A DNA stretch of 64,000 nt from IMG/VR virus record IMGVR_UViG_3300028591_000136, positions 37,108 to 101,107 of that record; one strand, written 5' to 3'. The stretch is from a virus (taxonomy: Duplodnaviria > Caudoviricetes). Each line of letters starts with the position of its first letter. Position 1 is the first letter of the stretch. The notes under the pieces were generated by a model. It was not told where the DNA came from and did no database searches. It worked only from the letters and a program-made list of their open reading frames with translations. This document shows, in pieces, positions 21,228 to 43,187 of this stretch. The position numbers were made by a program, and so were the translations under genes.

Positions 21228-21565
21228 CACACAGTTCGAGCCTAGAGCCAATACTGTGTAAAACAGAGAATGCAGACTACGTTATGGATAATCCGTATAA
21301 TACAGTGAAGTGGGTATTGCACCGTGATTCTTCCAAGCATTAGTACGGTAGGGTATCGACACTCGCATTCAACAAATTGTAGAATTAACTACACATACTA
21401 AAGAGCCTAGAGCCATGTATGGGATAAAAACGCCGTCCACACGGTGTAAAATATGTGGTCATTTGATCAAAATCACGAATCATGTTGAGCCTTGAGCCAA
21501 CATTATGTTGCATGATGATTTCAAGAATGCAGATATGACCTATTTCCGAGCCTTGAGCCAGCATT
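21228..21565 (+). repeat. Array of four GAGCCTWGAGCCA motifs, mostly in hairpin loops (candidate sponge sRNA)
   Basis: Copies at 21238, 21403, 21487 and 21548. Flanking stems CACAGT/ACTGTG, CATAC/GTATG and ATGTTG/CAACAT. Confidence 0.75.
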
Positions 21566-21732
21566 TAGACCACCATATCACCTAATTTTAAGGTTTCAAG
21601 AAAAGCCTTTCTAAGCGTTTTTAAAGCTTGAGTGGATTAGCTACCCACGAGAGTAGAGAAAATGTCTCAGAGAGCCTAGAAATGGCCTTAAATCGAATGT
21701 TTTGACTGATCATCTTAACATTCACAACAAGA

Positions 21733-22010
21733 ATCTTAGCGTGTCCCAGGATACGTCGTTCGGACGGGGGTTCGATTCCCCCCAGGTCCACCTGTACGGT
21801 TCTTTTACGTAGCGACCGATGGGTACAGCCGGTGAATTTTCTACCTAAAAAGAAAAGCTACAATCCGGGCTTGAATGGTTTAGACGGCGACAGAAAGTAA
21901 GACATTAAGCGCTTTGATATAAAAATTAACTGGCAATATTAAAATTGCAGACTACACGGGTCTCAAGGAGGCAGCGTGAAGTCGGTGTACAGGCTACCTA
22001 AGTGCCTGTG
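21733..22010 (+). ncRNA. ssrA: Circularly permuted (two-piece) tmRNA; tag (A)GNIKIADYTGLKEAA*
   Basis: The 3' end GGAC-GGGGG-TTCGATT-CCCCC-CAGGTCC-ACC (21762-21792) precedes the 5' end GGGCTTGAATGGTTTAGACGGCGAC (21867). G3:U70 acceptor pair. TAACT resume motif, then tag frame 21932-21979 ending AA-stop. Outer ends are approximate. Confidence 0.85.
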
Positions 22011-22016
22011 AAACGA

Positions 22017-22091
22017 GAATGAGTTGAGTGAGAGGATAACTGTCCTGCAGCTTTGCCGGATCACGTGGGTTCGAATCCCACACTCATTCCA
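22017..22091 (+). ncRNA. tRNA-like element with non-canonical D and anticodon arms
   Basis: 8-bp acceptor GAATGAGT/ACTCATTC and T-arm GTGGG-TTCGAAT-CCCAC; no standard 7-nt anticodon loop. Confidence 0.55.
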
Positions 22092-22190
22092 AGCGCGAGA
22101 GCGTGATTTGGTATCCTTTGGCATAATACAACAAATTGTTTTTTTAGTTATTTAAGGAATGATTTCTAGCCCTACGGTGGTAGGGCATCT

Positions 22191-22264
22191 GGACTTGTAG
22201 CTCAGCTGGTTAGAGCACATGACTCATAATCATGGGGTCCCAGGTTCAAACCCTGGCTGGTCCA
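22191..22264 (+). tRNA. tRNA(CAT), Ile2- or elongator Met-type
   Basis: Anticodon arm CATGA-CTCATAA-TCATG with canonical D and T arms. Confidence 0.9.
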
Positions 22265-22363
22265 CGAGTTTTATTACCTATTCTCATTAAAACAACGGGT
22301 AACTCTACATTTCGAGGGCAAAATGCGCGTGGCCACATTCAAGCGAAATAATGTGGCATGCTT

Positions 22364-22437
22364 GGTTCCTTAGCTCAGCTGGATAGAGCATGACACTTCT
22401 AATGTCAGGGTCAAAGGTTCGAATCCTTTAGGAATCA
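22364..22437 (+). tRNA. tRNA-Arg(TCT)
   Basis: TGACA-CTTCTAA-TGTCA; canonical cloverleaf. Confidence 0.92.
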
Positions 22438-22439
22438 CT

Positions 22440-22973
22440 ATGAAAAAATTAGGATATCGAGAAATGTTACGGGACAGATGTCCCAAAGTTGTTAGTCATG
22501 CTCTCAAATGGCAAAAAGCCAAAGAGAAATGGATTGACCATGTGTATTCTTATTTTGTTAAAATACTTGGCGATGAAGTCGACATTGATGATAAGATTGT
22601 AAAAACAGCAAAAGATAACAAACGAACTGTTATTAGCTTCTTATTAGGAATGAAGAAAGGAAAAATCAAGAATTTTAACTTTAAGAATACAATTGATTGG
22701 GACAACTTATCAGATGAAGAGACTAAATATTGGGAAACGGTCTCAACATGGGTAAGATGGTTCAGTACTAAGTATGGGTATATAGAAAACCTATACGATA
22801 TCTCTAAAAAGGTAGGTAAAGATGAAGAGACTATTAAAATCGAAATCATCAATAGCTATCTTGGTGCACTAATGCCGTCTCGCGACGCACCTGAGGAGGA
22901 AAAACAAGCTAAATATAATTATGTAGATAGATTTGTTGAATTCTTAATTAGGTGTTTTGAAGGAAAAATATGA
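22440..22973 (+). CDS. Hypothetical protein
   Basis: 177-aa ORF starting 2 nt after tRNA-Arg. Confidence 0.8.
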   Translation: MKKLGYREMLRDRCPKVVSHALKWQKAKEKWIDHVYSYFVKILGDEVDIDDKIVKTAKDNKRTVISFLLGMKKGKIKNFNFKNTIDWDNLSDEETKYWETVSTWVRWFSTKYGYIENLYDISKKVGKDEETIKIEIINSYLGALMPSRDAPEEEKQAKYNYVDRFVEFLIRCFEGKI

Positions 22974-23395
22974 TTAGTGTATATTCCCACTATTTAGACC
23001 CCATAGACGGGGAAACTGATGCATTTGAAAAACCTAGTACTACAATATGCAGGCTACGTAACGCATACAATCAAGGCGTAGAAGGTATATTACAAAATGC
23101 TAGAGTTTTTGCATTGAACGATGGCGAAATTGATGATGAAATTTTATATGAAGTTTGGAGGAATGAATATCTTCATGATATACTAATGTGGATAAACAAG
23201 AAAATTGTAATCTTATTAGATATTGCTGATTATCGAACCATAGGTGTTCGAATGCGTATTGCGATCGGTAGACTAAACAAATTAGTCTATGAAGGTAAAT
23301 TATCTGAAAAATTGAGTAGAAAAATTCACTACAATTTCGTGACTACAATTAACGGAGAAATCTCAGCTATAAATACTGAAGATTTACCGTTTTAG
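22970..23395 (+). CDS. Hypothetical protein with SSB-like EDLPF tail
   Basis: 141-aa ORF. Confidence 0.75.
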   Translation: MISVYSHYLDPIDGETDAFEKPSTTICRLRNAYNQGVEGILQNARVFALNDGEIDDEILYEVWRNEYLHDILMWINKKIVILLDIADYRTIGVRMRIAIGRLNKLVYEGKLSEKLSRKIHYNFVTTINGEISAINTEDLPF

Positions 23396-23598
23396 GGCTG
23401 ACAACTTAATCTGGATTAGTATTCCAGCAGCCCGCAATACTTGACGAGGGTGGGTGGAATAAATCTCTCACACAGTACTGAGAGGCAGTAGGCACCACTA
23501 TGGTAGGTAGTACGAAAGTGGAGTGTAGTCAAGTAAACTTATACAGCACCGTCTGTTACGCGAGTGACACGCTAATAACCGGTAAAATTGTTTTGATT

Positions 23599-24156
23599 AT
23601 GAACCCACGTATTACCCCAGAGGAGGTTGGGATAATCAAAAGAGCGCAAGCAGGTGATGAACTTGCTTTTAATGCACTTTATCATAGGTACAAAGGATTC
23701 GTGGAAAATCTCCTTTTTCATTATCTTAAAGATATGGATGAGGCCAAGGAAATTGCAAATGTAGTTTTCTTAAAAGTGCATGAGAAACTCTCTAAGTTCA
23801 CAGCTTATGACTCCTTTGGAGGATGGCTGAGAATTTTAACAAATCGAACTGCTATCGATTATCTTCGTAGTATAAAGAACAAGCAAACAGCTTCTGACGT
23901 GAAAGAAGAACGACTTACTTCTGACATTCAGGGTTCTACAGAAAATGATCTAGTCAATCATTTGACCTATAAAGCTTTGTTGCGTGAATTCTTAACGTTT
24001 CCAGAGGTCACTCGTAAGATCTTTGAACGTTTCTACATTGATAATATGACAGTAGAAGAGATTAGTGAGTCGTTCAATCCTAAAATCCCAACTGGAACTA
24101 TTAAGTCAACGTTGTCTAGGACTAGACGAAAATTGAAAAAACGTTTAAAACTCTAA
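23599..24156 (+). CDS. ECF-type sigma-70 factor
   Basis: AQAGDELAFNALYHRY; region 2 EAKEIANVVFLKV...FGGWLRILTNRTAIDYLR; region 4 MTVEEIS...TGTIKSTLSRTRRKL. Start at 23599 preferred over 23500. Confidence 0.92.
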   Translation: MNPRITPEEVGIIKRAQAGDELAFNALYHRYKGFVENLLFHYLKDMDEAKEIANVVFLKVHEKLSKFTAYDSFGGWLRILTNRTAIDYLRSIKNKQTASDVKEERLTSDIQGSTENDLVNHLTYKALLREFLTFPEVTRKIFERFYIDNMTVEEISESFNPKIPTGTIKSTLSRTRRKLKKRLKL

Positions 24157-24160
24157 GAAA

Positions 24161-24571
24161 ATGACATTAGCTTTGTTCATTTTTGCGATTGCACTTGCTC
24201 TTGGTATAGCTCGCTATAACAATAGCAACAAGCTATTTTGGACGTTATTGACGTGCTTTATACTTGGCATCGCATGCACTAAGATTGTCCATGACACTCT
24301 TAGTGAGAAGGAACAGAGTGAACAGTCGCTCGATCAGGCGTATCCCACACAGGGGTTAGCAGTTACGGGGAACACATTTATGTTGTTCACAAATCCCGAT
24401 AACTGTTTAACAGACGTGAAGGTAACTTCAAAACCTGTGAGTCAGGCTATTACGCCTGATTATATCGAGTTACTGAACACTCTAAGTAATGTCTCTGGGG
24501 TGACTCAGGGATTATATCTTCATACCCTACCTAACCCACCAAATAAGGTAGAACTCGTAGATACATCATGA
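24161..24571 (+). CDS. Membrane protein downstream of the sigma factor
   Basis: Two N-terminal TM helices. Confidence 0.75.
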   Translation: MTLALFIFAIALALGIARYNNSNKLFWTLLTCFILGIACTKIVHDTLSEKEQSEQSLDQAYPTQGLAVTGNTFMLFTNPDNCLTDVKVTSKPVSQAITPDYIELLNTLSNVSGVTQGLYLHTLPNPPNKVELVDTS

Positions 24572-24654
24572 AAATATCTATATGAAGAAAATATAGGTCA
24601 CAGTTAAGTAGTTTGACCGGCTACAAGTAAATAATTCTAAATCACATTATCAAA

Positions 24655-26079
24655 ATGGGAAATAACAAAAAATCTGCAGCTCAGAAGGCAGCAGAACAGC
24701 AGGCAGCTGCACAGCAGGCTCCTGCAGAAGGAAAGGTAGAAATGCCTACCACAAATGTAAACCCTCAAACAAAGGGTCTTACACAGGGCGAGAAGGTTGC
24801 TTATCTAGGTGCTCTCCAGACGGAGCGTGCTTATATGATGAACAACATAGAGAAGCCCTCTAAGGTGTTTATCGATGGTCTCACTATGCTTGCTCATGCA
24901 ACTATCATCGATATTGGTATTGGTGAGATAGCTACTGGCTGTAGCGCAGTTGGTTATATCTCAACCATCAACGAGCAGAATTACGGTTTCTTCCGTGATA
25001 TGGCTGCTGAGATGGGTGTGAAATTGCCAGAGTTCAAAGCTCTACCTGCTCCCACAGAGGAACAGTTGCAGAAAGCCGGTATCGCTGGTATTTTGCCCAA
25101 TGCTAAGATGATTACCATTGGCAAGAATAACGTTGAAAAGAGCGTTATTGACAAGAAGAAGGAAGAAATTCGTGCTACCGAAAAGGCCGTCGAGAACCCA
25201 GCCGACGTAAAGAGCGATGAGCAGCTGAAAGCCTCTCTTACAGCTATGCTTATCAAGCCAGTAGGTAACGACGAAGCAAACAAGAACAGACCTGATCCTC
25301 GTGTTCAGCGTACTATCAACTTCTATAATGGTTATCTGACTATTCAGGCTAACAACGCCGAGAATAAGGAGGAAGCCTTGAAGAAGGTGAAGGAGAAGAG
25401 CCGCATTCAGCTGCTCACTGAGATTTCGGAGATTGTAGGTCCATGTCCGTTCGCTCTGAGCGGTATTGCCAAGTTTCTTCGAAACCGTGCCTTTGAGACC
25501 GGTTCTCCTATCTCATCTTACTGCTTCTATCGTCGTTGTGCCATTGAAAAGGGTAAGGATGCCGATGATCAGTACGTGGCTGACCTGGTTCGCACCATTC
25601 TAGTATGGTCTTGTAAGAGTAATATCGCAGAGTTTAATAAGCTTCTCGAGACTCAGGAAAAGAACGTAAAGAATGAGAAGGGTGCTGCTAAGACAGCTAC
25701 TGAGTCCGCTATTCGTTACAATAAGACTCAGATTGAGGAGATGAAGCGCATCATCGATGAGGTTTCTGAACCTAACTTCGATTGTGTTGATTCTCTGATT
25801 GAGGATTATAACAGCGATGAAAAGAGCGAGAAGTACAGATTGTCTCATCGTGTTGTAGATGATATTATGAAGACATATTATCCTGAGGTGGATCGCACCA
25901 AGGTTGATGAAATGTCTATGCTCGCAGCTGTTCAGCAGCGTGCTGGTATCATCATCAATATGTTCCGCAGTCCTCTCAACCAGAATCAGGCATATTGTGA
26001 GGCTAATCTCAGCAATATTGTCGAGAAGAAGGTTGAAGAGAAACCTGCAGAAAGTGCTGAGGGTGAGTCAAAAAACTGA
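24655..26079 (+). CDS. Large hypothetical protein (474 aa, high-expression codon bias)
   Basis: Long TAG-free ORF. Confidence 0.85.
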   Translation: MGNNKKSAAQKAAEQQAAAQQAPAEGKVEMPTTNVNPQTKGLTQGEKVAYLGALQTERAYMMNNIEKPSKVFIDGLTMLAHATIIDIGIGEIATGCSAVGYISTINEQNYGFFRDMAAEMGVKLPEFKALPAPTEEQLQKAGIAGILPNAKMITIGKNNVEKSVIDKKKEEIRATEKAVENPADVKSDEQLKASLTAMLIKPVGNDEANKNRPDPRVQRTINFYNGYLTIQANNAENKEEALKKVKEKSRIQLLTEISEIVGPCPFALSGIAKFLRNRAFETGSPISSYCFYRRCAIEKGKDADDQYVADLVRTILVWSCKSNIAEFNKLLETQEKNVKNEKGAAKTATESAIRYNKTQIEEMKRIIDEVSEPNFDCVDSLIEDYNSDEKSEKYRLSHRVVDDIMKTYYPEVDRTKVDEMSMLAAVQQRAGIIINMFRSPLNQNQAYCEANLSNIVEKKVEEKPAESAEGESKN

Positions 26080-26157
26080 TTAAGGTCCTCATAGACTGGT
26101 TTAAGGATATGTGGGACCGATACTACTGGCTTCATTGGTAATTTAAATCTATCAAAG

Positions 26158-26604
26158 ATGAAATACGTAATGACAATTTTGTGTTCCTTTGCATTTGCCA
26201 TCGCTGGTATATGCTTAGCAATACAGAATAATAGTAGCAGTCCTGGTTATAATCAGAATGCTATTCACGCATCTACGCTTCCCAAATATGGGACGCCAAA
26301 GTTGCCACTTGATCTCCAATTGGATTTGGAGAAGAAGTACTCTAAGACAGACACTGTGTATTTGCCTTCTGACACGGTGTTTGTAACGAAACAACAGAAG
26401 GCCAAACCTAAAGTCCGTAGAGCGCATACACTCAAATCGGCTTCGATGAGTCGTCAGAGTTTACGCAGTCCAGCGTATAATCCTGACTCCATTGTGAAAA
26501 ACAAAGTATGTGGGGATCGTGAGGAGCATACCCCAGACACTATTGGACTTCCTAAAAGTTCCATTATCCTCGTTGTCGACGGCGAGGAAGTCTACAAACG
26601 TTAA
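26158..26604 (+). CDS. Membrane-anchored or secreted hypothetical protein
   Basis: N-terminal hydrophobic helix; DTVY...DTVF repeats. Confidence 0.75.
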   Translation: MKYVMTILCSFAFAIAGICLAIQNNSSSPGYNQNAIHASTLPKYGTPKLPLDLQLDLEKKYSKTDTVYLPSDTVFVTKQQKAKPKVRRAHTLKSASMSRQSLRSPAYNPDSIVKNKVCGDREEHTPDTIGLPKSSIILVVDGEEVYKR

Positions 26605-28770
26605 TAGCTCCGCAGGGGGACAGTATGAGGATTTGTACTGTCCCACCCCGTTGGGGACCTGGTCAGCATTCGTCTAAGGAATTGGTCCCATTAGCCATAG
26701 AATGCGAAATAGTACAACTTGATCCGAGAATATGTCAGCCTTCTCAAAAGGTGAGAAACCCAAAAGGTAGGATGAAATGCTGCATTGTATACGTACTATA
26801 TACCGAAAAGTTTGCAGTAAGAGGACAGAGCGTTTGTATCAAGTCCTTTGGCCATTGAGAACCGTCTGGAGAATGGGTGACCATAAAAACGCGTAAGTCG
26901 CAAAAAGCGCAAAATGATGCCGTATTCGACATGCTATTCGATGATACATAAGAATAGTATAACGTTACAGGAGCCGCAACATTGAGTTTGAAGCCAATCC
27001 CTCAATGATGTATCAATAAGCTGTAGTCTAGTGTTCCACGTCTCCACAACGTGTATGAAGGGATGAAAAATATCTGAGCATATGTGCCTAGCAGAAGGTT
27101 TGACTGTCTGCGCTGTACCGTAACTATGGTCCTTTTAAGAGTCCTTGCAGTTCGATTCTGCACAACTCCGTTGAAGGGGTGCCAGGGATGGGGTATAAAG
27201 GAAAATGTGATGAAGATGACCGCCAGGCTTTAGTCGTTCAAGCGGGATATAAAAGTAAATGACTACAAGTGGATGCAACACTTAATTCGTAAGGTTCTGG
27301 AGCCTACGATACGCGGATGAAGCGCGCGGAGAAACGCTATTTCAATTGAGGATGAGCACTGGTAAGCGAGTGTTATGTTCGAAGTAGGAAATGCTTTTGG
27401 GTGACTCCCTGACAGTCAAAATTCTTATCCCAGTGGTCGATTCGAAGCCTGTACATTCCAGTATAGAGAGAGATCGCTACTGTCAAAAACATTAAATAAT
27501 TAGATGATTACCTTATGTTGCTAAATCACCATTCCCTACAGAGTATTAAGCTGGTATATTAGGTGTGAATAACATATCGTATGGAGTAGATTCTAAGTAA
27601 AAAGATGTGAGTAGAGAACAATCCTTTTATAGTGTTTTTGCACTTTATAATTAACATGTTTAACAAAAATTGATGTCCCCTGGCTGGGAGAAAATAAAGT
27701 GTAAGCCGAAGACCCCGTTTGTAATGTTTGTGGGTGCTTTCACGCCAGAAATCGAGTGCCAACCGTTCCTGAGAAGCAAATTGACAAGATGAATCCTGTT
27801 TGAGTATGGACTGCAAATCCATATGATCGGCAGAGACCATGAAGTCGTATACATTTAATCGATGGGCAGCTTATCGTGAAATTAGTAGCCACCTCCTTGT
27901 CTCGGAGGGGTAAAGAGAATGAGTAATTAGTCTGTCGAAAGACAGTTCGCTGATGAAAAGGATTCGGTGAATATGAATCTTTAAGTGGGTGACAAGAAGC
28001 GATGTATGAGGTGGAATTCCTCCAGTATTCGTGCACTATAAACAAATGAGGATGAGCAAACATCCAACAGAAGTAATTAAAGCCGTAGGGTCTGAGAAGA
28101 GTTTTGGAGCTCTGAGATCGTCCGATAACGAAACGTACTCCTCACGTACACCACACGCAAGGTGTATAAAAGCAGGAAAAGGTAAACAGTTAGTATACGC
28201 CTTAAAGTATGCAACATCAGAGAAAATCTGTGGTTAAGTAACAATCACGGTAGTTATTCGTTTTTGTTTCTGGGAATTACACTAACGAAGAAATACCAAC
28301 TTTTGTGGGCGCTGATATGTACTATGAGCATTAGTTGGCTTTGCCAAAATTTTGTCAACGTACATTGAGGCATTGTAATATTGGATTTAGTACGTAAGGA
28401 AAGTATTCAATAAATGTTTTACGAAAAATAAACATCAATAAGATATGACTCAAGTAAACTTAGTGTTTGATTACACAAATTCAGCATTCAAAGCTTTGGG
28501 TTCTATTAATGATGATGGGCCTGGATAATCCTACCGTTGGATTCCCGTTATACGAGTTGAGCTTCATGTAAAGGAATATAGAAGTATAACTAGTCATTGA
28601 TAAAAGCGTTGCTTCCCATTAGCACAGCAACTGAGAAATAAGTTGAACAAGCGCATCCTTGAGAGCCTTGAGCCGGATGTAAAATATTTTCAAGGTTAAC
28701 CTACACCGTAGAAGTAGGAAGTAAATAATCTTATCGTTGGTGGATCAACCACGATATCAAAAAGGATAAG
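26605..28770 (+). ncRNA. ~2.1 kb hairpin-dense non-coding tract (candidate large ornate RNA or RNAs)
   Basis: No convincing protein ORF and more than 20 visible stems, several with GAAA or T-loop-like loops. Confidence 0.5.
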
Positions 28771-28775
28771 AATAA

Positions 28776-29432
28776 ATGAGTAAAAACGTAGAAATTAACC
28801 TCAATGAGGTTATTGCGAATACTCGCCAATCAGCGAGTTTCATTGGAAGTCTTCTTGGTAAGACTTTTGGTAAGGTAGAATGTCAGATGACATGGCCTGG
28901 TGGTAAAGACAAGTTTGAAGAGGCAAAGAACATTGCAGCAGCCAGCAACTCACTGATGCTCAATATGTCTCCTCGTCGTTATACCATCCGTCTGATCGAC
29001 ATCAAGGGTGTGAACTATGTAACAGAGGGTCTGGGTGATTCCCAGCATGTTGCTATTGCTGTTAACCTGAAGGCGAACGGTGAGAGCGACTTCAAGTGTC
29101 CTCTGAACGGTGTGAACCCCGTCGTTGTTGAGAAGTCAATGCGCGATGCTATTAACGACGCTCTGAAGGGTACTGGTAAGAACTTCTTCGTCGCAGTTGA
29201 CGAGGCCGTTAGCTGCCTGAATGAGGCTAATAAGAGCACTCTGAGTGAGATTGATGCTCTCATCAAGACCTTGCAGGGTCAGCGCCAGTCTGTAGAGACC
29301 GCTATTACGGAGAATCTTCGTAAGGCCTCTGAGTATAAGCGCCAGTGGAACGAGTCGAAGGTTGAAAACCTTGACTTGAAGACAGATGGTGTTAACGACG
29401 CAGTTATTAACGTTCATACTACCGACGAATAG
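28776..29432 (+). CDS. Hypothetical protein
   Basis: 218-aa ORF with strong codon bias. Confidence 0.85.
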   Translation: MSKNVEINLNEVIANTRQSASFIGSLLGKTFGKVECQMTWPGGKDKFEEAKNIAAASNSLMLNMSPRRYTIRLIDIKGVNYVTEGLGDSQHVAIAVNLKANGESDFKCPLNGVNPVVVEKSMRDAINDALKGTGKNFFVAVDEAVSCLNEANKSTLSEIDALIKTLQGQRQSVETAITENLRKASEYKRQWNESKVENLDLKTDGVNDAVINVHTTDE

Positions 29433-29434
29433 TC

Positions 29435-30022: not shown

Positions 30023-30187
30023 TAAATCTTGCGGGATTTAGTTGTTATATTATCGAGGTAGTATAATGACATCAAGGTGAACAGAGTAACGGTTATATCG
30101 TGTCTTTATCGATACGCTTTTTATTTATAAAACTTATCTCGCTTAAAACTCTTGCGGGAGTTAGGGGATGGAGTCTTGCGGGACTCC
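29830..30187 (+). repeat. Four hairpins with invariant TC-TTGCGG-GA apex and variable stems
   Basis: 29830-29845, 30023-30040, 30147-30162 and 30170-30187. Confidence 0.8.
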
Positions 30188-31683: not shown

Positions 31684-31698
31684 GAAAGGAGGTAAGCT

Positions 31699-32597: not shown

Positions 32598-32722
32598 GAG
32601 TGAGTTGGCGAAATAGGTAGACGCGGCTCTGCAACTATCAGCGTAACGTTGACGGAAGTCATTAAATGATAGTATTGTGGGGCTGTCGAAAGACATATGG
32701 GTTCGAGTCCCATACTCACTCC
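32598..32722 (+). ncRNA. tRNA-Leu-like element whose anticodon arm is replaced by a long branched stem
   Basis: Acceptor GAGTGAGT/ACTCACTC, Leu-type D arm GGCGAAATAGGTAGACGC, variable arm TGTC-GAAA-GACA, T-arm ATGGG-TTCGAGT-CCCAT. Confidence 0.65.
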
Positions 32723-32749
32723 TAGTATTAACTAAAGAACCTTTGAGTC

Positions 32750-34774: not shown

Positions 34775-34803
34775 TAACCAACTTAGAACCGAGAGTCAAT
34801 AGT

Positions 34804-35370: not shown

Positions 35371-36274
35371 TATTCGACCTATGTCAGTTGTAGCTCAAGA
35401 AGCTATCAACTATATAGCAGGACGTAGAGAACATTCTATTGCGTCATTGAAGACTAGATGGGTTAAGTTTAATAAGCAGTGTATGGGAGGTATTGAACCA
35501 AATACCGTTTACACCATAGCTGGTATATCTGGAACAGGTAAATCAAGTTGGGTTAACAGCTTGACAACCGATTTAATTGATTTGAATCCAACTGAAGAGA
35601 TAGTTATTCTAAATTTCTCATTAGAGATGGTTGGATTTAGGCAAGTTGGAAGAACGCTTTCGAATAAACTTCGTAAAACGACTTCTACCTTGTATAGTTC
35701 GGAGACGGACCTTGATGACGAAACATTTAAAAAAGTCATTGCAGTATCTAATCAACTGAAAGAGTATCCTATCTATTTTGTAGATAATCCAGGTACTCCT
35801 TCAGAGGTAGAAAAAACTATTCGATCTTTCTACGAAACCTATGTGAAAGGCACTAAAAAGCATTTCATTATAGTGTACGATCATACATTGCTGACGAAAC
35901 AAGTTGGTTCAGTTATTGAAACAACATCAGAGCTTGAGCGAGTATTTATACAAGCTAAGAAGTTCCCTTTAACGTCTGTGGTGCAGATTGCACAAATGAA
36001 TAGAAATATCGAGTCTTCAGAGAGGATAAATAACCCATCGAGTCATTACCCGATGCGCAGTGATTTATCGTCATCTGATGCAATGTTTCAAGCGAGCGAT
36101 TATGTGCTCGTGATGCATAGACCAGAAATATTGAACATTCAAGAGTACGGTCCAAACCGTTTACCTACACAAAATAAGGTCTACATGCACATGTTGAAAA
36201 ACAGAGATGCAGGTAAACCTTGTATATTGGAATTCGAGAACGATTTGATGTACAACAATCTGATCGAGAGTTAA
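35351..36274 (+). CDS. DnaB-like replicative helicase
   Basis: AGISGTGKS, FSLEM, YDH, QMNR, SDLSSS..FQASD and KNRDAG. Confidence 0.9.
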   Translation: MEQNLSNIRPMSVVAQEAINYIAGRREHSIASLKTRWVKFNKQCMGGIEPNTVYTIAGISGTGKSSWVNSLTTDLIDLNPTEEIVILNFSLEMVGFRQVGRTLSNKLRKTTSTLYSSETDLDDETFKKVIAVSNQLKEYPIYFVDNPGTPSEVEKTIRSFYETYVKGTKKHFIIVYDHTLLTKQVGSVIETTSELERVFIQAKKFPLTSVVQIAQMNRNIESSERINNPSSHYPMRSDLSSSDAMFQASDYVLVMHRPEILNIQEYGPNRLPTQNKVYMHMLKNRDAGKPCILEFENDLMYNNLIES

Positions 36275-36315
36275 TGCTCAGATGACAAGTATTAACTTAA
36301 AAATTAGGCTGAATT

Positions 36316-36786
36316 ATGATTACGACATACACTTTTGGTAAGAAGAACAATAATAATAATTTTAACTTTTTTCACACTAGTAGCAAACCCGATTATTCTA
36401 AGATCCTTGATGATATTATCATTACTGATATAATCGATAAGAATGATTTCTTGACTAAGGATTATAGTACTAAGAAGGCTGACGCTGATTACTTCATGAG
36501 TAAGACTTCTAGTCCCGCTCTGATTAACGCTACTAAGTTCCTCGCCAATTATAAGACGTATTCAAAGAAGTATACTCTGCCGTATATTATCGGTAAGTGC
36601 TATACTCTTTCCGATGGTACTCCTATTGTGTTCTACGAGAACAATATTCAGATTGGTTATGATTTCTTCGATTATGATGATTTCAACGACCTGTCTTTCT
36701 TTGATTCTCTGACGAAGAAGAACAAGAAGATTATCATCGATATTTACTTGAAGGGTGCTAAGAATATTAATATTAACATCCTTTAA
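36316..36786 (+). CDS. Hypothetical protein
   Basis: 156-aa ORF. Confidence 0.8.
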   Translation: MITTYTFGKKNNNNNFNFFHTSSKPDYSKILDDIIITDIIDKNDFLTKDYSTKKADADYFMSKTSSPALINATKFLANYKTYSKKYTLPYIIGKCYTLSDGTPIVFYENNIQIGYDFFDYDDFNDLSFFDSLTKKNKKIIIDIYLKGAKNININIL

Positions 36787-36811
36787 TTAATCATTAGAAC
36801 TATAAGTCAAT

Positions 36812-37555
36812 ATGATAACTTTACCTACTCAAAAAGTTCCTGCAACTTCAACGAATCCGCAGTACTTGGTCTTATACGGTCTACCTAAAGCTGGTAAGAC
36901 TAGTGCTGTAGCACAGTTGGAGAATAATCTCATCATAGACCTTGAAGGCGGATCTAAGTTCATTGATGCGCTAGCTGTTCAGGCACGTACCATCAATGAT
37001 CTTGGAGAGATTGCACAAGCCATTCGAGCTAAGAACGATGAGTTGGGACATAATTTTTATAAACACATTACAATAGACAATGCTACACGTCTTGAAGACA
37101 TTTGTATGTCTTATGCTTGCACTCTTTATAGACAAACGGAGCTTGGTAAGAATTGGAAAGGAACAGACGTTACTACGCTCGCCAGAGGTGCAGGTTATAA
37201 GTACCTACGAGACGCCGTTAAAAAGGTGATAGATATGTTTAAAGACTTGTGCGATGAATTTATTTTGATAGGACATGTCAAAGATAGTATCACCGATAAA
37301 GACGGGGAAGAGGTCAATGCAAAAGAAATCGACCTCGTCGGAAAACTTGGGAAAATTGTGTGTGGTATGGCCGACGCTGTCGGGTACGTCTATCGCAAAG
37401 ATAATGAAACTCACATCAGTTTCAAATCTGGAGGAGACGGAACGATTATGGAAGCAAGAGCTAGGCATATCGCGGGTCAAGATATTGTTATAGCTACTGG
37501 AAACGAAGACGGTAGTATAACAACATATTGGAATCGTGTTTATAAACCTGAATAA
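36812..37555 (+). CDS. AAA_24/Sak4-like ATPase
   Basis: YGLPKAGKT, IDLEGG, ITIDNAT and LIGH. Confidence 0.85.
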   Translation: MITLPTQKVPATSTNPQYLVLYGLPKAGKTSAVAQLENNLIIDLEGGSKFIDALAVQARTINDLGEIAQAIRAKNDELGHNFYKHITIDNATRLEDICMSYACTLYRQTELGKNWKGTDVTTLARGAGYKYLRDAVKKVIDMFKDLCDEFILIGHVKDSITDKDGEEVNAKEIDLVGKLGKIVCGMADAVGYVYRKDNETHISFKSGGDGTIMEARARHIAGQDIVIATGNEDGSITTYWNRVYKPE

Positions 37556-37581
37556 GAACCTAGAGTCAATATCAGAAAATT

Positions 37582-38175
37582 ATGTATAGTACAAAAACAG
37601 CAACAACAAATAACGAGGAATTTAGTTCCTCATATATGCCTGTAGGCATCAACGAAAATGTTACTTTGAAAGAAGTAAATGTAAACAAAACTCCTCAAGG
37701 TCGTGATTTCTTAGAGATTATCTTTGAGAATGAGGACGGCCAGACAGCAACTATGACTGAGTGGAAGAACGAAAAGAATATGTGGATTACTACAGACGAA
37801 GATTTACAGCGTCGTGATAATCAGCAGTTTGGTCGTATTCTGCAGGTTATTGATGCAGTTAAAGGTGGTCATAACGATTTTGAAGGCTCTTCATTTATCG
37901 AGATGATTAACTGGGTGAAGAGTTGTCTTAATGATGGAGATAATGACCAAGTACGTCTTAAGGTTGTTTACGACAAGAAGGGCTTTACGAAAGTTAGCTC
38001 TCTTGGTACTTTTGTTGAACCTATGAGTGTAACAGAGTCTCAGATTAAGCTTTGGAAGAACGATCTTCTGGAGCGTCCAGTAGTAGCGGATAAAGAACCC
38101 GCTGCTGATCCGCTCAGTGTAACAGCTGCTCCGGTGACTGCAGACTCTACAGGTGCTGACGACCTGCCGTTTTAA
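37582..38175 (+). CDS. Putative single-stranded DNA-binding protein
   Basis: Follows the Sak4-like ATPase; beta-rich with acidic GADDLPF tail. Confidence 0.7.
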   Translation: MYSTKTATTNNEEFSSSYMPVGINENVTLKEVNVNKTPQGRDFLEIIFENEDGQTATMTEWKNEKNMWITTDEDLQRRDNQQFGRILQVIDAVKGGHNDFEGSSFIEMINWVKSCLNDGDNDQVRLKVVYDKKGFTKVSSLGTFVEPMSVTESQIKLWKNDLLERPVVADKEPAADPLSVTAAPVTADSTGADDLPF

Positions 38176-38301
38176 TCATCTTGTTTGGTGGAGGGATAAA
38201 CCATACCATCCAAGTATATTAAGACAGATAATAATGGTCAGTGGTGGAGGACTGATAGGTTAATCCTGTCAGCCCCTAACAAGATTTTTATTCTTCATAT
38301 T

Positions 38302-38714
38302 TGCTATGGCGAGAAATCCCATAGTAGAATCTCCCTAAAACGGTGAAAATCCTTATACGAGATAATTTTGGTGTAATAGGAAACACGTCACTTATAGTGA
38401 AGACCAAGGTTCGAGTCTGCGACTTTATCTCGACACTAACCAATAATGTGTAAGGATAATACCGTGCTAAATTGAATTATAATCTAGCAAATTACGTTTT
38501 AATACTAGTATACGTGTAAAGATTTGCATAATTCATAAATGTGTAGAGAGTATATAGGAGATACCTAAGTTGAAATTTATTAAAAGACTGGTCATGACCA
38601 ACCGTTATTACCTTAAAGTGTGGGGTATGAGGAATACTAAGCTGTTAAGAGAGGTGTTGTGCGGCAGGGTGCATTTAATATCTTGCAAGAATTTCAATAT
38701 GGTAAAAATACTCT
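38302..38714 (+). mobile_element. Group I intron catalytic core, intergenic; exons not identified
   Basis: P3 ATCTCC/GGAGAT, P4 ACGGT/ACCGT, P5 ATCCTTA/TAAGGAT, J6/7-P7 GTGTAGAGAGTA pairing with TACTC (38709), and P8 TACC/GGTA. Confidence 0.65.
38358..38432 (+). ncRNA. Degenerate tRNA-like domain inside P5 of the intron core
   Basis: CGAGATAA/TTATCTCG, D-arm GTGT-AATAGGAA-ACAC, TCACT-TAT-AGTGA and GGTTCGAGT. Confidence 0.45.
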
Positions 38715-38717
38715 TTG

Positions 38718-38798
38718 GAAATCAGTAGTCTAGAGGTTATGACGATCAACTACAAGATAATTGATGGACTGTGGGGTTCGATTCCCCATCTGATTACA
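38718..38798 (+). ncRNA. tRNA-like element with 11-nt anticodon loop
   Basis: AATCAG/CTGATT, GTC..GAC, ATCAA-CTACAAGATAA-TTGAT and GTGGGG-TTCGATT-CCCCAT. Confidence 0.65.
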
Positions 38799-38819
38799 AT
38801 AATTTTAATTTTTTAAAAC

Positions 38820-38930
38820 ATGAGCAAAGAATTTAAACTTAATTTTGAATGGAATACACGCGATAATAAAAATGATGCACGTGTAGGAGCAATGTACTGT
38901 TTTAAGTACTGCGACATTTGTAAAAACTAA
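38820..38930 (+). CDS. Small hypothetical protein (36 aa)
   Basis: ATG with A/T-rich leader. Confidence 0.4.
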   Translation: MSKEFKLNFEWNTRDNKNDARVGAMYCFKYCDICKN

Positions 38931-38931
38931 A

Positions 38932-39084
38932 ATGGAAGAAAAGAAGTTCAAACATGGAACAAAAGAGTACTGGATGGACTGGTACTGGAACAGAGGTGGA
39001 CGAGAAAAAGTCCAAGCTAAACGTTATATACGAGAGTATGAACGTGAAAAGAAAAAACGGAGGGCACGTACCTCAGTTGAATAG
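38932..39084 (+). CDS. Small basic protein (50 aa)
   Basis: MEEKKFKHGTKEYWMDWYWNRGG...; its TAG stop lies inside the next tRNA-like element. Confidence 0.5.
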   Translation: MEEKKFKHGTKEYWMDWYWNRGGREKVQAKRYIREYEREKKKRRARTSVE

Positions 39085-39139
39085 AGGTCTGGCGCGAAAG
39101 TTAGCCGGAAAGTCGTGGGTTTGAGTCCCACCGTGTCCA
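39062..39139 (+). ncRNA. tRNA-like element with Ala-type acceptor (G3:U70, A73) and 10-nt anticodon loop
   Basis: GGGCACG/CGTGTCC-A, CCTC/GAGG, CTGGC-GCGAAAGTTA-GCCGG and GTGGG-TTTGAGT-CCCAC. Confidence 0.7.
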
Positions 39140-39257
39140 CAAGAGGTCAAATCATATCGCTCCTCTTAGAAATAAACACGGCGGTATGTGGGTTGGAAGT
39201 TTTATTCAAACTGTGTAAAAGACAAAGAATATACAAAAGAGTTTAAGATGACCTAAA

Positions 39258-39317
39258 GTGTGATCCTGGAGGCTGCGTATGAAAAATTACGTAATAGGGT
39301 TCGAATCCCTACACACA
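39258..39317 (+). ncRNA. Minimal tRNA-like element with reduced D arm, upstream of primase
   Basis: GTGTG/CACAC, TGCGTA/TACGTA and TAGGG-TTCGAAT-CCCTA. Confidence 0.45.
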
Positions 39318-39341
39318 ACAATACTAAGAGCTTATAAGCCA

Positions 39342-40325
39342 ATGTATAGTACAAAAACAGCAATTACAATGAGTCTTAGAGACTTATTGGATAAAGTTGA
39401 TGACTATACTATCTATTCTTATTATCTAGGCCCATTTAAGCCTGGAAAACTAATGAATAGTCCTTTACGAAGTGATGATAAAATGCCATCATTTGCAATA
39501 TTTGCAACTAAAGATGGTGCTTTATTATTTAAAGATCATGGAACTGGAGTAGCAGGTAATGCACTTAAATTCATGAAACTTTATAGAGGTATTCAAACAA
39601 GAGAAGAACTTGAACGAGAATTGCTGAAAATTGTAAGAAGAACAAATCCAGAATTAAACGCTACAACTGTAACAAGAGGTAGATTAGTTACATCTGGATT
39701 ACCAGCAGATATCGGAATAGTTCGTCAACCATTTACGGAAATAGACAAGAAATATTGGAAACAATTTCATATTTCTATCGACACATTAAAACGATTCAAT
39801 GTGTTTAGTATTAAATATTATCTTTGTAATAGAGTCGTCAGAGGAACCTACAAAGATAACAGCCCTATGTATGCCTATAAGGTTTATGATAAGTTTAAAA
39901 TTTATAGACCTTTAGCCTCAAAGTATACTAAATGGCGTACCAATCTGACAAATCGGCACGTTCAGGGGTTAGCCGAGTTGCCCTACGAGGGGGGTAATCT
40001 GCTGATAATCACTAAGTCTTTAAAAGACGTTATGTGTTTATACGAGATGGGATTTAATGCTATATCTCCGTCTAGTGAGACTACATTTATACCTGATGAT
40101 ATATTGAAGTCTCTTAGATATAAATGGAAGCATATTGTTATACTATTCGATCGAGATGCAACGGGAATGAAAAAAGCTCGTGAATATAGTAAACGATATA
40201 AGATAGATGCTATATTTGTCAATAAAAAGTTTAAAGCGAAGGACATATCCGACGCTGTTCGAGATAATTCGTTCTTCGCAGTAAAAGAATGGTTAACAAA
40301 AACAGTAGAAAGATATGATAGCTAA
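39342..40325 (+). CDS. DNA primase (crAss-type, TOPRIM)
   Basis: SPLRSDDKMPSF, FKDHGTG, IITKSLKDVM, LFDRDATG and KDISD. True start probably 39342 (MYSTKTA). Confidence 0.88.
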   Translation: MYSTKTAITMSLRDLLDKVDDYTIYSYYLGPFKPGKLMNSPLRSDDKMPSFAIFATKDGALLFKDHGTGVAGNALKFMKLYRGIQTREELERELLKIVRRTNPELNATTVTRGRLVTSGLPADIGIVRQPFTEIDKKYWKQFHISIDTLKRFNVFSIKYYLCNRVVRGTYKDNSPMYAYKVYDKFKIYRPLASKYTKWRTNLTNRHVQGLAELPYEGGNLLIITKSLKDVMCLYEMGFNAISPSSETTFIPDDILKSLRYKWKHIVILFDRDATGMKKAREYSKRYKIDAIFVNKKFKAKDISDAVRDNSFFAVKEWLTKTVERYDS

Positions 40326-40455
40326 CATATTAATTGCAATAGGTTTCTTCTTCGTAGGTCTTACTACAGGCATTTGTTTAACAGCAAATGCTTATCGTAA
40401 AGCCTTAAACGAATGGAAGAAGGAGATGAAACACTTAATAGTGTATGAACTCTAA
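40315..40455 (+). CDS. Small membrane protein (46 aa)
   Basis: One TM helix; bridges primase and nuclease genes. Confidence 0.5.
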   Translation: MIANILIAIGFFFVGLTTGICLTANAYRKALNEWKKEMKHLIVYEL

Positions 40456-40846
40456 AGGTAAAGTAAAGAACGCGACAGCTGTCGATGCGTATGGAATACA
40501 TTTTCGAAGTAAACTTGAACTCTATACGTATGAAGCTTTTATGAAAGCTGGAATCCCAGTTAAATATGAGCCAAAGCACTTTACTTTATTACCCAAGTTT
40601 ACTTACCTTGGAGAAAATATACGTGCTATTACTTATCTGCCTGACTTTATTGGTCGTGGATTTGTAGTAGAGTGTAAAGGCTTAATGGGTGATTCGTTTC
40701 CATTAAGATATAAACTCTTCAAGTATTACTTAAAGCGTCATCATTCCAAGATGCGCTGCTACCTGGTGAGAAATCATAAACAGGTAGATGAAATGATTGC
40801 AGAACTAAAAGTCAGACAAGAAAATGGAAAAAATGAAAAACAATAA
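40445..40846 (+). CDS. PD-(D/E)XK endonuclease (DUF1064 / T7 endonuclease I-like)
   Basis: FRSKLE...YLPDF...VECKG. Confidence 0.8.
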   Translation: MNSKGKVKNATAVDAYGIHFRSKLELYTYEAFMKAGIPVKYEPKHFTLLPKFTYLGENIRAITYLPDFIGRGFVVECKGLMGDSFPLRYKLFKYYLKRHHSKMRCYLVRNHKQVDEMIAELKVRQENGKNEKQ

Positions 40847-41606
40847 CAATTTCGTTAATAGTAATGGTCACATAATTCCTAAACCTTCCGGTATAGATTA
40901 CGAGCTTAAACCTGGTAAAGTTTACGCTTTGGTACATGATCGTGATTTGTATATGGATTATTTAGAGGAGGATAAAGATTTTGAATTCCCTAAGACATAC
41001 TATTTGAATGATAAAGATAATAAGTTTATAAACAAGACTATTGATACATTCAATAAGACTGAGAAGATGACAACAGGTATCTTACTTAGTGGTATGAAGG
41101 GTTCAGGTAAGACTCTTATGGCTAAGAAAATAGCTAAGGAATCTGGTCTTCCTATAATTGTAGTAGACAGTAAGGTATCATCTGATGATATCGAGCCGTT
41201 CTTTGCAAAGATTACGGATGATGTGTGTGTTATTTTTGACGAAATAGACAAATATTGGACTACTCGTTACCTTCTTACTTTTCTTGATGGTGTAAAACCA
41301 ACTTGTAAAAAGATGGTTATTGCAACATGTAACGATGAAAAGGAAATTAGTTCGTATTTGAACGATAGGTGTTCACGTATACGCTATAAGAAGCGCTTCG
41401 GCGGTCTTTCTAAGGATACCGTAGAAGGAATTATAAATGATATTGTTGGAGATAAGAATAAGGCTAATGCTGCTGCAGAATATATTTGTAGCAACGTTGA
41501 GACTATATCTTACGACAATGTTATTATCTTCGGTGAGGAAATAAAGAATAATCCCGATGATTCCTTTGATGATATCATCGAGTTCCTTAATATTGCTAAG
41601 AGGTAA
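40824..41606 (+). CDS. AAA+ ATPase
   Basis: GMKGSGKT, IFDEIDK, ATCN and RCSRI. Confidence 0.88.
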   Translation: MEKMKNNNNFVNSNGHIIPKPSGIDYELKPGKVYALVHDRDLYMDYLEEDKDFEFPKTYYLNDKDNKFINKTIDTFNKTEKMTTGILLSGMKGSGKTLMAKKIAKESGLPIIVVDSKVSSDDIEPFFAKITDDVCVIFDEIDKYWTTRYLLTFLDGVKPTCKKMVIATCNDEKEISSYLNDRCSRIRYKKRFGGLSKDTVEGIINDIVGDKNKANAAAEYICSNVETISYDNVIIFGEEIKNNPDDSFDDIIEFLNIAKR

Positions 41607-41737
41607 TGTTGTTGTTATTACAAATATTAGGTTTTGCAGGAGGTTTCTTTGGAGCCATGTGGCTTCTTAGATGGTCAATGAACAAAGATATAGTTATTAC
41701 CTTTAAACCTTTTTCTGTAAAAATTGAGAAACGATAA
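41606..41737 (+). CDS. Small membrane protein (43 aa)
   Basis: TAATG overlaps on both sides. Confidence 0.55.
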   Translation: MLLLLQILGFAGGFFGAMWLLRWSMNKDIVITFKPFSVKIEKR

Positions 41738-42750
41738 TGGATATTAGTATTCCATACTACGAGGACCTTTCTAGGATCTCGAATTCGAACATAGGCTGGT
41801 TTCTAAACAAGGGGCCAGCCTATTTACATAAGATGCTTACAGATCCTCCACCTGAGGAAAAGAACCCAGTGTTGGAGCGTGGAACTATGATCCATGAATA
41901 TTTGTTGCAGCCAGAAGAGTTCCAAAAAGACTATGTAGTCTGGAGCAAAAGTAGACCTTTTTCTGCACAGCAGGAGAAGTTCTGTCAGGCCTTAGCATCT
42001 TCATTAGAAATAGAGCCAAATAGAGCCATTCTAGACGCCTATAAACAGGCATATAGTACAGCAGGAAAGTCAGAAGACAAAATGCTGTCAGAAGGCCTTA
42101 AAATAGCCTCTACGTTGAAGGATTATATCGACTTCCTTAAGTCAGATGATAAGAGGATTATGATTACTCCTTCAGAAGCAAAAATGCTTGAGAAAATCAA
42201 GCAAAACATACTTGCTCACAAACTTGCTTATCCTATAATAGAAGCATCTAAAGTATTACGAGATAGTAATGATAATGTGATATTTGAAAACCATCATGAG
42301 TTTCACATCAATTGGACATACTATGTAAAAATGGCAGCTGGAGTAGAATGTAAATCATTGTTAGATGGTCTTATGTTAGACTTTAGAAATAAAAAAGCTA
42401 CAATATACGATCTAAAGACTACAGCTAAACTGTGGCACTTTGAAGAAAGTATAGAGATGTATGACTATTGCAGACAGCTATGTTTCTATTATCAAGCAGT
42501 TGTTTGGTATTTAAAATACGAACTAAAAGAAGATCCTAATAGTTGGACTTATGATTGGTATATTATAGGAATTGATACTACAGGATCGAATGAAATTCGT
42601 GTATTTAAACTTGACTACTACATGATTGATTCTCGTAAAGAAACAATAATGAATGCGATGAAAGAGATTATGTGGCATCAAGATCACAATTTGTGGGAAC
42701 ATAGTAGAGAATATTATGAAGGCGATGGCTCAGAGTCATTGAACCTATGA
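41737..42750 (+). CDS. PD-(D/E)XK exonuclease (RecE/ExoVIII-like)
   Basis: ISNS, GTMIHEYLL, KSLLD...DLKTT and YCRQLCFY. Confidence 0.85.
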   Translation: MDISIPYYEDLSRISNSNIGWFLNKGPAYLHKMLTDPPPEEKNPVLERGTMIHEYLLQPEEFQKDYVVWSKSRPFSAQQEKFCQALASSLEIEPNRAILDAYKQAYSTAGKSEDKMLSEGLKIASTLKDYIDFLKSDDKRIMITPSEAKMLEKIKQNILAHKLAYPIIEASKVLRDSNDNVIFENHHEFHINWTYYVKMAAGVECKSLLDGLMLDFRNKKATIYDLKTTAKLWHFEESIEMYDYCRQLCFYYQAVVWYLKYELKEDPNSWTYDWYIIGIDTTGSNEIRVFKLDYYMIDSRKETIMNAMKEIMWHQDHNLWEHSREYYEGDGSESLNL

Positions 42751-43187
42751 GCAATATATACAAAGTAATTATACCTTTGATTGATGAGAATATATCACTT
42801 GATGATATTCAGGATGATACATTTGTTGATTGTTATGTAGAGGATATAAATCGTCCCTTTCTTGACAATCATATATTTCTCATGTACAAATGGGATAATA
42901 AAAAATCGTCAAAGGTTTTCTATAAGTTCAGAGATATAAAATCTTTTTATGGATATAAAATTGTGTATATTAATGGAAAAAGCTATATAATATACACGTT
43001 TACGTCTAATGCTAATATACGGCGTTTAATAAATGGAAATGTATTATTAGGTGATTTGACTAAACTGCGTATTTTACGATTTTGGCAGTTTACAGATAAA
43101 TGGGTCATGTTTAATATCATGCGTGGAACCGTGATGTGTGACCCACCTAATAATATTTTGCCAGAAGAAGATTATATCGAAGAATAA
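42747..43187 (+). CDS. Hypothetical protein
   Basis: 146-aa ORF; last gene of the plus-strand block. Confidence 0.8.
   Translation: MSNIYKVIIPLIDENISLDDIQDDTFVDCYVEDINRPFLDNHIFLMYKWDNKKSSKVFYKFRDIKSFYGYKIVYINGKSYIIYTFTSNANIRRLINGNVLLGDLTKLRILRFWQFTDKWVMFNIMRGTVMCDPPNNILPEEDYIEE

Follow-up and report, generated by a model that had tools for sequence, protein, structure and literature searches.

Seven replication genes of a rumen bacteriophage carry a small bulged helix at or close to their start codons, and the same helix is repeated on hairpins in a non-coding array directly in front of the phage transfer-messenger RNA (tmRNA). The helix was identified in a 64,000-nt stretch of virus record IMGVR_UViG_3300028591_000136 (hereafter, the window), which forms the right 64 kb of a 101,107-bp crAss-like phage genome. 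The nearest named relatives belong to the Suoliviridae, subfamily Oafivirinae (cr272_1, Buhlduvirus), and share ~76% nucleotide identity across the replication genes. DNA near-identical to the window is contained in goat, sheep and cattle gut metagenomes and metatranscriptomes, and the source phage is a rumen crAss-like phage. The signal is real and conserved across Oafivirinae, and the account of it that we put forward, tentatively, is an RNA operator for a dimeric factor accompanied by a decoy array. Positions refer to the window, and genes without a name are given by their start coordinates.

The original prediction described a linear motif of two half-sites at the starts of PolB, gene 34804, a Sak4-like ATPase, SSB and primase, and all five copies were recovered on the + strand. 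Across the window, the linear pattern matched 14 times compared to ~2.3 expected. With a 2-nt spacer there were 11 matches (1.14 expected), a number reached in 0/100 shuffles, and with a 3-nt spacer there were 3 (1.14 expected). The predicted sense-strand bias was also borne out: the strict pattern occurs 11 times on the + strand and 0 times on the - strand of the whole 101-kb genome, and 147 matches on the gene strand were found versus 1 on the opposite strand in 81 related loci (~1 Mb), the relatives having been collected via the tmRNA and not via protein peptide patterns. An additional copy was found at 40802, 10 nt 5' of the AAA-ATPase ATG (40824). The start of gene 42747 does carry a copy, as proposed, but this is not the suggested variant overlapping the ATG at 42741; it is a copy at 42733-42745 in which the halves are swapped. 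A motif within 15 nt of the ATG was present for 7/11 genes from PolB to 42747 and for 0/16 early genes upstream of PolB. No description of the motif was found in Rfam or in the literature searched, and in the regions 21-33 kb and 37.5-39.5 kb Rfam covariance models matched only tRNA and tmRNA, even at E<=5.

Comparison of orthologous upstream regions of relatives showed that the motif is itself a small helix whose halves pair, and not a linear consensus presented in a single-stranded loop as had been assumed. The halves follow the rule n1-B-x-z-y, a spacer of 1-5 nt, then y'-B-z'-x'-n1', producing four Watson-Crick pairs and leaving the second base of each half (B) unpaired. The two unpaired bases are situated on opposite strands, two pairs apart, which makes the element two-fold pseudo-symmetric. 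Among relatives the sequence drifts while the helix rule stays, with >20 different helices satisfying it; those in the source genome include GAACC/GAGTC, GAACT/AAGTC, GAGCT/AAGCC and GAGCC/GAGCC. Several lineages carry the halves in opposite order, in which case the helix is unchanged but its loop and open end trade places. A perfect rule match within 45 nt of the orthologous ATG was present in 31/42, 33/54, 32/60, 38/58, 31/40, 12/20 and 14/22 distinct upstream sequences, compared to 1.6-3.5 matches in shuffles. B is identical in both halves, being A, T or C depending on lineage: when B was left free, A/A was observed 172 times (8.9 expected), T/T 16 times (4.6 expected) and C/C 7 times (1.6 expected), while mixed pairs stayed at background level. 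Because the unpaired bases are identical on a symmetric helix, a dimeric reader is suggested. Covariation rules out a duplex palindrome or direct repeat, as the halves are complementary only in the bulged register. A promoter of the extracytoplasmic function (ECF) sigma type was likewise rejected, with halves that are 1-5 nt apart, not 16-17, and that covary as pairs. One match, at 24095-24107 (+) inside the ECF-like sigma gene, was set aside as probably fortuitous because its nucleotides encode a conserved GTIKS peptide and the match is disrupted in three close relatives with A as the unpaired base (A-type; G001, cr131_1 and G011); it is also disrupted in all T-type genomes.

The copies at gene starts are:

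32737..32749, + strand: PolB copy, abutting ATG 32750, with a tRNA-like element (32599-32721) upstream
34786..34797, + strand: organiser copy, 6 nt before ATG 34804
36797..36808, + strand: Sak4 copy, 3 nt before ATG 36812, the start codon lying within a flanking ATCAT/ATGAT stem
37556..37567, + strand: SSB copy, 14 nt before ATG 37582, directly after the stop codon of the preceding gene
39328..39340, + strand: primase copy, 1 nt before ATG 39342, with a tRNA-like T-arm upstream
40802..40813, + strand: AAA-ATPase copy, 10 nt before ATG 40824, within the 3' end of gene 40445-40846
42733..42745, + strand: gene 42747 copy with halves swapped, 1 nt before ATG 42747, within the 3' end of the exonuclease gene

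Overall, -4 to 21 nt (mostly 0-6 nt) separate the helix end from the ATG, a distance that is gene-specific and conserved (PolB, 0-3 nt; primase, 0-1 nt; organiser, 2-8 nt; Sak4, -4 to 3 nt; SSB, 9-21 nt), with the ATG adjoining the helix at PolB and primase in all lineages. In >10 relatives, the spacer contains the Sak4 start codon, and codons 1-2 are made up of the second half; since the ATG is inside the element and an in-frame stop is situated just upstream, the element is part of the mRNA in these phages. The predicted location in the translation-initiation region is thereby confirmed, as the element overlaps both the ATG and the first codons. The PolB and primase copies are preceded by a tRNA or tRNA-like element whose end lies 10-25 nt upstream, and the flanks of the Sak4, SSB and primase copies are able to form a short outer stem that includes or nears the AUG. 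A second motif considered upstream of Sak4 in motif-less relatives proved to be the coding end of the upstream gene. As a separate observation, SSB (37582-37603) and primase (39342-39363) have their first 22 nt in common (peptide MYSTKTA), which is the same in nearly all relatives, and a similar string comes after array copy 2.

The array and one isolated copy are organized as follows:

21229..21259, + strand: array hairpin 1, with a 7-bp stem (21229-21235/21253-21259), mini-helix 21238-21249 and a folding z-score of -3.6
21394..21421, + strand: array hairpin 2, with a 5-bp outer stem and mini-helix 21403-21414
21482..21503, + strand: array hairpin 3, with a 5-bp stem directly flanking mini-helix 21487-21498
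21548..21559, + strand: array copy 4, symmetric, its outer stem weak here and clear in relatives
28654..28679, + strand: isolated symmetric copy, with mini-helix 28663-28674 in a 5-bp CATCC/GGATG hairpin

Four copies within 320 nt of non-coding DNA, spaced 61-165 nt apart, thus make up the array in the source genome, at the predicted positions 21238, 21403, 21487 and 21548. All are of the fully symmetric form, both halves being identical. The outer stems of copies 1-3 are unrelated in sequence, which agrees with the original prediction of three such closed copies; the fourth is only weakly closed. Between the upstream gene and the tmRNA, 3-4 copies were found in all 15 complete relatives examined, as well as in cr131_1 and cr7_1, mostly with a 5-7-bp outer stem separated from the mini-helix by internal loops of 2-3 nt on the 5' side and 3-4 nt on the 3' side. 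The predicted copy in the CATCC/GGATG hairpin was also recovered, where a 1.9-kb non-coding island ends, ~100 nt upstream of gene 28776, and relatives keep it with a different, compensating stem.

Covariation extends to the outer stems of the array. The hairpins orthologous to hairpin 1 carry different stem sequences, and among 37 aligned array hairpins all seven outer pairs show changes on both sides; the outer structure is paired in 77% of cases versus 62% in shuffles (a level reached in 0/500) and 29-41% in slid controls. G.T pairs exceed A.C pairs (17 vs 5, approximately equal numbers being expected) in the registered array stems, which favors folding of the sense strand; inside the mini-helix (3 vs 1) and in degenerate array copies there were too few cases for this comparison. 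Folding energies are unremarkable, with only hairpin 1 exceeding shuffles and an array z-score of -0.74, which means that the mini-helix is not stable unaided and requires a partner. Weak energies of this kind are in line with an operator that depends on a protein. Four studies yielded metatranscriptome contigs over the array. The breaks between contigs near 24.1 kb and 36.8 kb are short overlaps of neighboring contigs and may be assembly-graph branch points, not transcript ends. Small open reading frames (ORFs) after the array copies were dismissed, since their ATGs belong to outer stems and their frames do not persist in the flanks compared among relatives.

Conservation in relatives, expected if the signal is functional, extends to each of the Oafivirinae genera tested (Buhlduvirus, Cacepaovirus, Burzaovirus, Bohxovirus, Dulem virus 42 and rumen lineages), and the array-tmRNA layout was present in every Oafivirinae genome tested, human-gut members included. 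This layout was absent from one Boorivirinae and one Steigviridae phage, and the helix was absent at the orthologous genes of one Boorivirinae phage and of phi14:2, whose highly transcribed early intergenic region also has no such helix. As a side observation, phi14:2 does contain a 20-nt A-rich string ending in ATG (1959-1986, 3543-3592), before g003 and inside that intergenic region, which resembles the 5' flank of the source-genome PolB copy (TTAACTAAAGAAC). Within a genome, the unpaired base and the loop length of the array copies match those of the copies near genes, and both features vary between genomes. G013 and G015 combine 5-nt loops with identical halves at every copy; in cr7_1 the unpaired base is T in the four array copies as well as at the Sak4 and organiser starts; and the three array copies of G012 all carry T where those of its sister G011 carry A. 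T-type genomes are polyphyletic. This co-variation between the array and the gene copies implies one common trans-acting reader, and the array and start-codon copies accordingly belong to one system, as predicted.

The reader itself was sought in the phage genome. No match to the CsrA family (PF02599) was obtained at E<=1 in a six-frame search of the whole 101-kb phage genome (a search covering the phage and not its host), and no RegA-family protein (PF01818) was matched in the phage genome, so the suggested analogy to T4 RegA does not extend to the protein. The two adjacent genes originally proposed to encode the RNA-binding protein also fared poorly: 20552 lacks a homologue in most array-bearing relatives and is missing from almost all relatives overall, and conservation of 28776 is poor. 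Searches with peptide patterns recovered no relatives of proteins 20552 and 23500. Conserved early proteins of unassigned function are 22440, 24655, 29435, 30303, 34804 and 36316, of which the basic proteins 30303 and 22440 were modeled with AlphaFold as all-helical bundles (pLDDT 93). VIA-align, run on the 30303 model only, returned generic helical-bundle matches (Z up to 8.3), and protein atlas look-ups were uninformative.

A genome-wide screen for residues common to two T-type genomes and absent from five A-type genomes gave a single outlier, the region around the DFDVD catalytic motif of a giant virion protein; its 2,423-aa neighbor was an additional outlier once absent genes were allowed, and a 209-aa protein was discarded as tail-fibre-like. 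The giant DFDxD protein is a virion RNA polymerase (RNAP) found in relatives and matched in the source genome. In G012 (loci L137-L139) its gene has 5,740 codons, with TAG read as Q and DFDVD at 4528, and the neighboring gene has 2,423 codons; the in-frame TAG codons confirm amber recoding of late genes. The giant RNAP gene and its neighbor form two deep clades that have been exchanged between otherwise sister genomes (G012 vs G011 and G009). Polymerase clade I takes in every T-type and long-loop genome, and the ten clade-II genomes all carry the standard motif, which makes a link between motif and polymerase suggestive. However, G006 also has a clade-I polymerase, its core sharing 70% identity with that of T-type G012, but its motif is of the standard A type, and the polymerase clade therefore does not set the unpaired base. 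The screen signal reflects the two deep clades and not the identity of B, and the link stays no more than suggestive.

An RNA operator with a decoy array is the reading we prefer for this layout. In this proposal, the sense strand would form the bulged two-fold mini-helix, most likely as RNA, and a dimeric trans-acting factor, probably a phage protein, would grip the two identical unpaired bases. Because the helix ends 0-14 nt before the ATG or overlaps the start codon, factor bound at the seven replication genes would cover the ribosome landing site and act as a translational repressor rather than an activator. The array upstream of the tmRNA would display four symmetric, presumably tightest-binding copies on hairpins, with a fifth at 28663, and its RNA may compete for the same factor as a decoy or timer. 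Overlap with coding sequence, the irregular hairpins, the G.U bias, the adjacency to AUG and distances spanning a ribosome footprint all point to RNA. Taken to its full extent, a post-transcriptional circuit of the phage's own, in which a dimeric factor reads the helix at replisome starts and is titrated by a non-coding RNA with tandem perfect copies, appears rather doubtful, and we would place it below the general operator-and-decoy proposal.

The closest regulatory parallel is the one drawn in the original prediction, CsrA/RsmA with CsrB/RsmZ, where a short motif also occurs at the ribosome-landing sites of several mRNAs and in multiple copies on hairpins of a non-coding RNA, again implying a dimeric reader. 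Both parts of that layout were found here, namely a predicted RNA with several stem-loop copies (4 in the source genome and 3-4 per relative) and a motif placed over the ribosome-binding region. In contrast to Csr, which uses a single-stranded GGA in a loop, the present motif is a paired mini-helix with two unpaired bases and no GGA core; the decoy copies number only 3-5 and are phage-encoded, and the phage genome has no CsrA-family protein. The likeness is thus one of layout. It is the best available account of that layout, although we would give it somewhat less than an even chance, and the system is not a member of the Csr or RegA families. T4 RegA is comparable as a regulator of phage replication genes with operators overlapping start codons (here PolB, organiser, Sak4, SSB, primase, AAA ATPase and 42747). 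RegA sites are AU-rich and unstructured, however, the phage genome contains no protein of this family, and no decoy RNA is known for RegA. The coat-protein operators of leviviruses (MS2, PP7 and Qbeta) are weak start-codon hairpins with an unpaired purine, and the symmetric coat dimer seats two adenines in equivalent pockets. A weak start-codon hairpin with an unpaired base is shared with these phages, as would be reading by a dimer, but leviviruses have a single operator with one bulged and one loop base, whereas here two equivalent bulges, many operators and an array are present and no coat-like protein was identified.

Several observations weigh against the operator-and-decoy reading. No reader was found: the phage genome encodes neither a CsrA- nor a RegA-family protein, most early proteins had no match in Pfam or PHROGs, and the models of 30303 and 22440 returned nothing in Foldseek at E<=0.001. 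RNAalifold gave no consensus structure for the array alignment on energy grounds, and the metatranscriptome contigs over the array, being assembled only and without strand or transcript ends, are no proof of its transcription. The closing pair y-y' covaries even with 2-nt spacers, which is sterically awkward in an RNA hairpin and easier in DNA. Among the relatives, G011 and G012 keep the array with few gene-proximal copies, and L056 and L058 mix A- and T-type copies. Lastly, non-standard motif variants occur in 5/6 clade-I polymerase genomes and 0/10 clade-II genomes, a distribution that would fit a promoter.

A promoter or initiation signal of the virion-packaged RNAP, in which a small extruded hairpin with flipped-out bases is recognized and transcription starts at or just past the helix, is the leading rival, although we consider it unlikely; an equally unlikely extension is that the mRNAs are leaderless or short-leader and that the array is a strong early promoter cluster driving the tmRNA and tRNAs. 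Transcription of the replication module in the model crAss-like phage phi14:2 is early and rifampicin-resistant and is carried out by the virion RNAP gp66, which is active only on single-stranded or denatured DNA; the study of this phage reported no common motif at early transcript starts, and no early promoter motif is known. N4 provides a precedent with its hairpin promoters, which are perfect 5-7-bp stems with 3-nt loops on the template strand and a start ~5 nt past the stem; points of likeness are a polymerase packaged in the virion that depends on single-stranded template, the small size of the hairpins with their 3-nt loops, and the clustering of early promoters. The motif is moreover strand-specific, limited to the early module and different as a whole set between genomes, as is the case for phage-RNAP promoters, its T-type and long-loop variants occur only with polymerase clade I, and an ATG abutting the helix would suit leaderless mRNAs. 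Conversely, the geometry fits poorly. The helix-to-ATG distance spans -4 to 21 nt, so no fixed transcription start fits, and the ATG is inside the element in >10 relatives; a start placed as in N4 would delete the PolB and primase start codons. Unlike in N4, the stem is a bulged one of 4 bp, the sense strand is favored, the ATG abuts or overlaps the helix, and the polymerase is of an unrelated, two-barrel DFDxD family. The excess of G.U over A.C favors folding of the sense strand over that of the template strand, hairpins interrupted by internal loops and bulges are ill suited to extrusion from a DNA duplex, a two-fold symmetric signal lacks direction, and the standard A-type motif of G006 is at odds with its T-type-like polymerase.

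The symmetry that is awkward for a promoter would suit a dimeric endoribonuclease of phage or host, the symmetric unpaired bases marking the cuts. Early polycistronic RNA would then be trimmed to short-leader mRNAs and the array RNA chopped while the tmRNA precursor is released, comparable to the RNase III sites of T7 or RegB of T4. The geometry is that of a miniature bulge-helix-bulge: in archaea this motif has 3-nt bulges 4 bp apart on opposite strands, two-fold symmetric and cut by a dimeric enzyme, and here too two bulges on opposite strands show two-fold symmetry, but they are 1-nt bulges 2 bp apart. Sites at gene boundaries of a tightly packed operon, beside tRNA-like elements that are processing signals themselves, an ATG that abuts the helix end and an array preceding a two-piece tmRNA that needs processing are all compatible with cleavage. 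Against this, no nuclease candidate was identified (the DUF1064 protein at 40445 is DNA-junction-resolvase-like, and no EndA-like gene was seen, although no search was aimed at one), and, judged by geometry, cuts at the staggered unpaired bases would leave 5' overhangs, the reverse of what RNase III produces; we regard cleavage as improbable, more so than a promoter. Four same-orientation repeats in a non-coding region could also be DNA iterons, the array being a replication origin bound by organiser 34804 and the gene-proximal copies operators of the organiser, which is an organiser-like protein encoded by the phage, itself motif-bearing, among targets that are replication genes. This is very improbable, as the halves covary as a bulged hairpin and not as a duplex palindrome or direct repeat, the spacer of 1-5 nt and the 61-165 nt between array copies do not fit, and the strict sense orientation and start-codon adjacency are left unexplained. 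Least credible of all is a tRNA sponge, in which the loop TAG and its flank pair with the anticodon arm of the phage amber-suppressor tRNA. Complementarity of 7 nt does exist for two TAG-form copies, but the sponge reading is contradicted by a spacer that is not conserved among relatives (TT, TTT, CCC, TGA, TATTA and others; TT in 2/4 source copies), and pairing would require opening of the tRNA anticodon stem.

The helix is embedded in an early module on the + strand (~18.7 to 43.2 kb) that contains small genes without assigned function, a permuted tmRNA and tRNAs, an ECF-like sigma factor, the 1.9-kb non-coding island and the replication genes. Its main features are:

21731..21979, + strand: permuted (two-piece) tmRNA (RF04321, 65.5 bits), directly 3' of the array
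22191, + strand: tRNA-Met, after the tmRNA
22364, + strand: tRNA-Arg, after the tmRNA and tRNA-Met
23500-24156, + strand: ECF-like sigma factor with regions 2 and 4
32750 (start), + strand: PolB, a replication gene
34804 (start), + strand: replisome-organiser-like (ScpB-like) protein
35351 (start), + strand: DnaB
36812 (start), + strand: Sak4/RecA-like ATPase
37582 (start), + strand: SSB
39342 (start), + strand: primase
40445-40846, + strand: DUF1064 gene, DNA-junction-resolvase-like
40824 (start), + strand: AAA ATPase, clamp-loader-like
41737 (start), + strand: exonuclease
42747 (start), + strand: 146-aa protein of unassigned function

Several further observations concern this module. The region 21699-22070 contains the phage-encoded two-piece tmRNA, whose tag ends in AA, and a tmRNA is annotated in cr131_1 and cr7_1 too. 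At 23500-24571 the ECF-like sigma gene is followed by a 136-aa protein with N-terminal hydrophobic stretches, and the two may be a sigma/anti-sigma pair of the early module. A 219-aa protein encoded at 19722-20381 matches the C-terminal domain of ribosomal L7/L12 at a borderline score, just under the cut-off (25.8 vs 25.9 bits). Early genes without the helix are marked by a second start-proximal motif, an A-rich run followed by ATTATCAAA, 0-4 nt 5' of the ATGs at 18758, 19187, 20552, 24655, 26158 and 30973; it is kept at the orthologous genes of cr131_1, cr7_1 and Bohxovirus and could be a conserved leader or promoter class. The non-coding island (26860-28770) has no + strand ORF of >=50 aa over 1.9 kb, and its RNA contig depth was 500-1250 in one sheep metatranscriptome compared to 50-150 at flanking genes. 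In the non-coding gap between SSB and primase (37676-39009), summed metatranscriptome contig depth reached 1e4-5e4 in three runs, 20-100x that of neighboring genes. Segments 38353-38453, 38475-38533 and 38577-38682 are replaced by many alternative sequences, and tRNA-like elements are situated inside or near the gap (38362-38429, 38719-38796 and 39062-39139, with a T-arm near 39295). The gap resembles a cluster of abundant, stable RNAs into which hypervariable inserts are set.

The literature searched describes no cis-regulatory signal that governs early expression in crAss-like phages. The element reported here is a sharply defined signal that marks the replisome genes of Oafivirinae, a subfamily of the dominant gut phage order, in rumen, pig, primate and human samples. 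Its natural A, T and C variants provide a handle for finding the reader by co-evolution, and the helix rule supplies ready mutants in the form of compensatory pairs, exchanged unpaired bases and reversed half order. If the operator and decoy proposal is true, it would constitute a new mode of RNA-protein recognition and a viral sponge circuit, a structurally new counterpart of Csr-type regulation. Were the element instead a promoter, it would reveal what the virion RNAP recognizes, a motif not reported for the crAss-type enzyme in the literature searched. Each of these leading readings, if true, would be new for this phage order.

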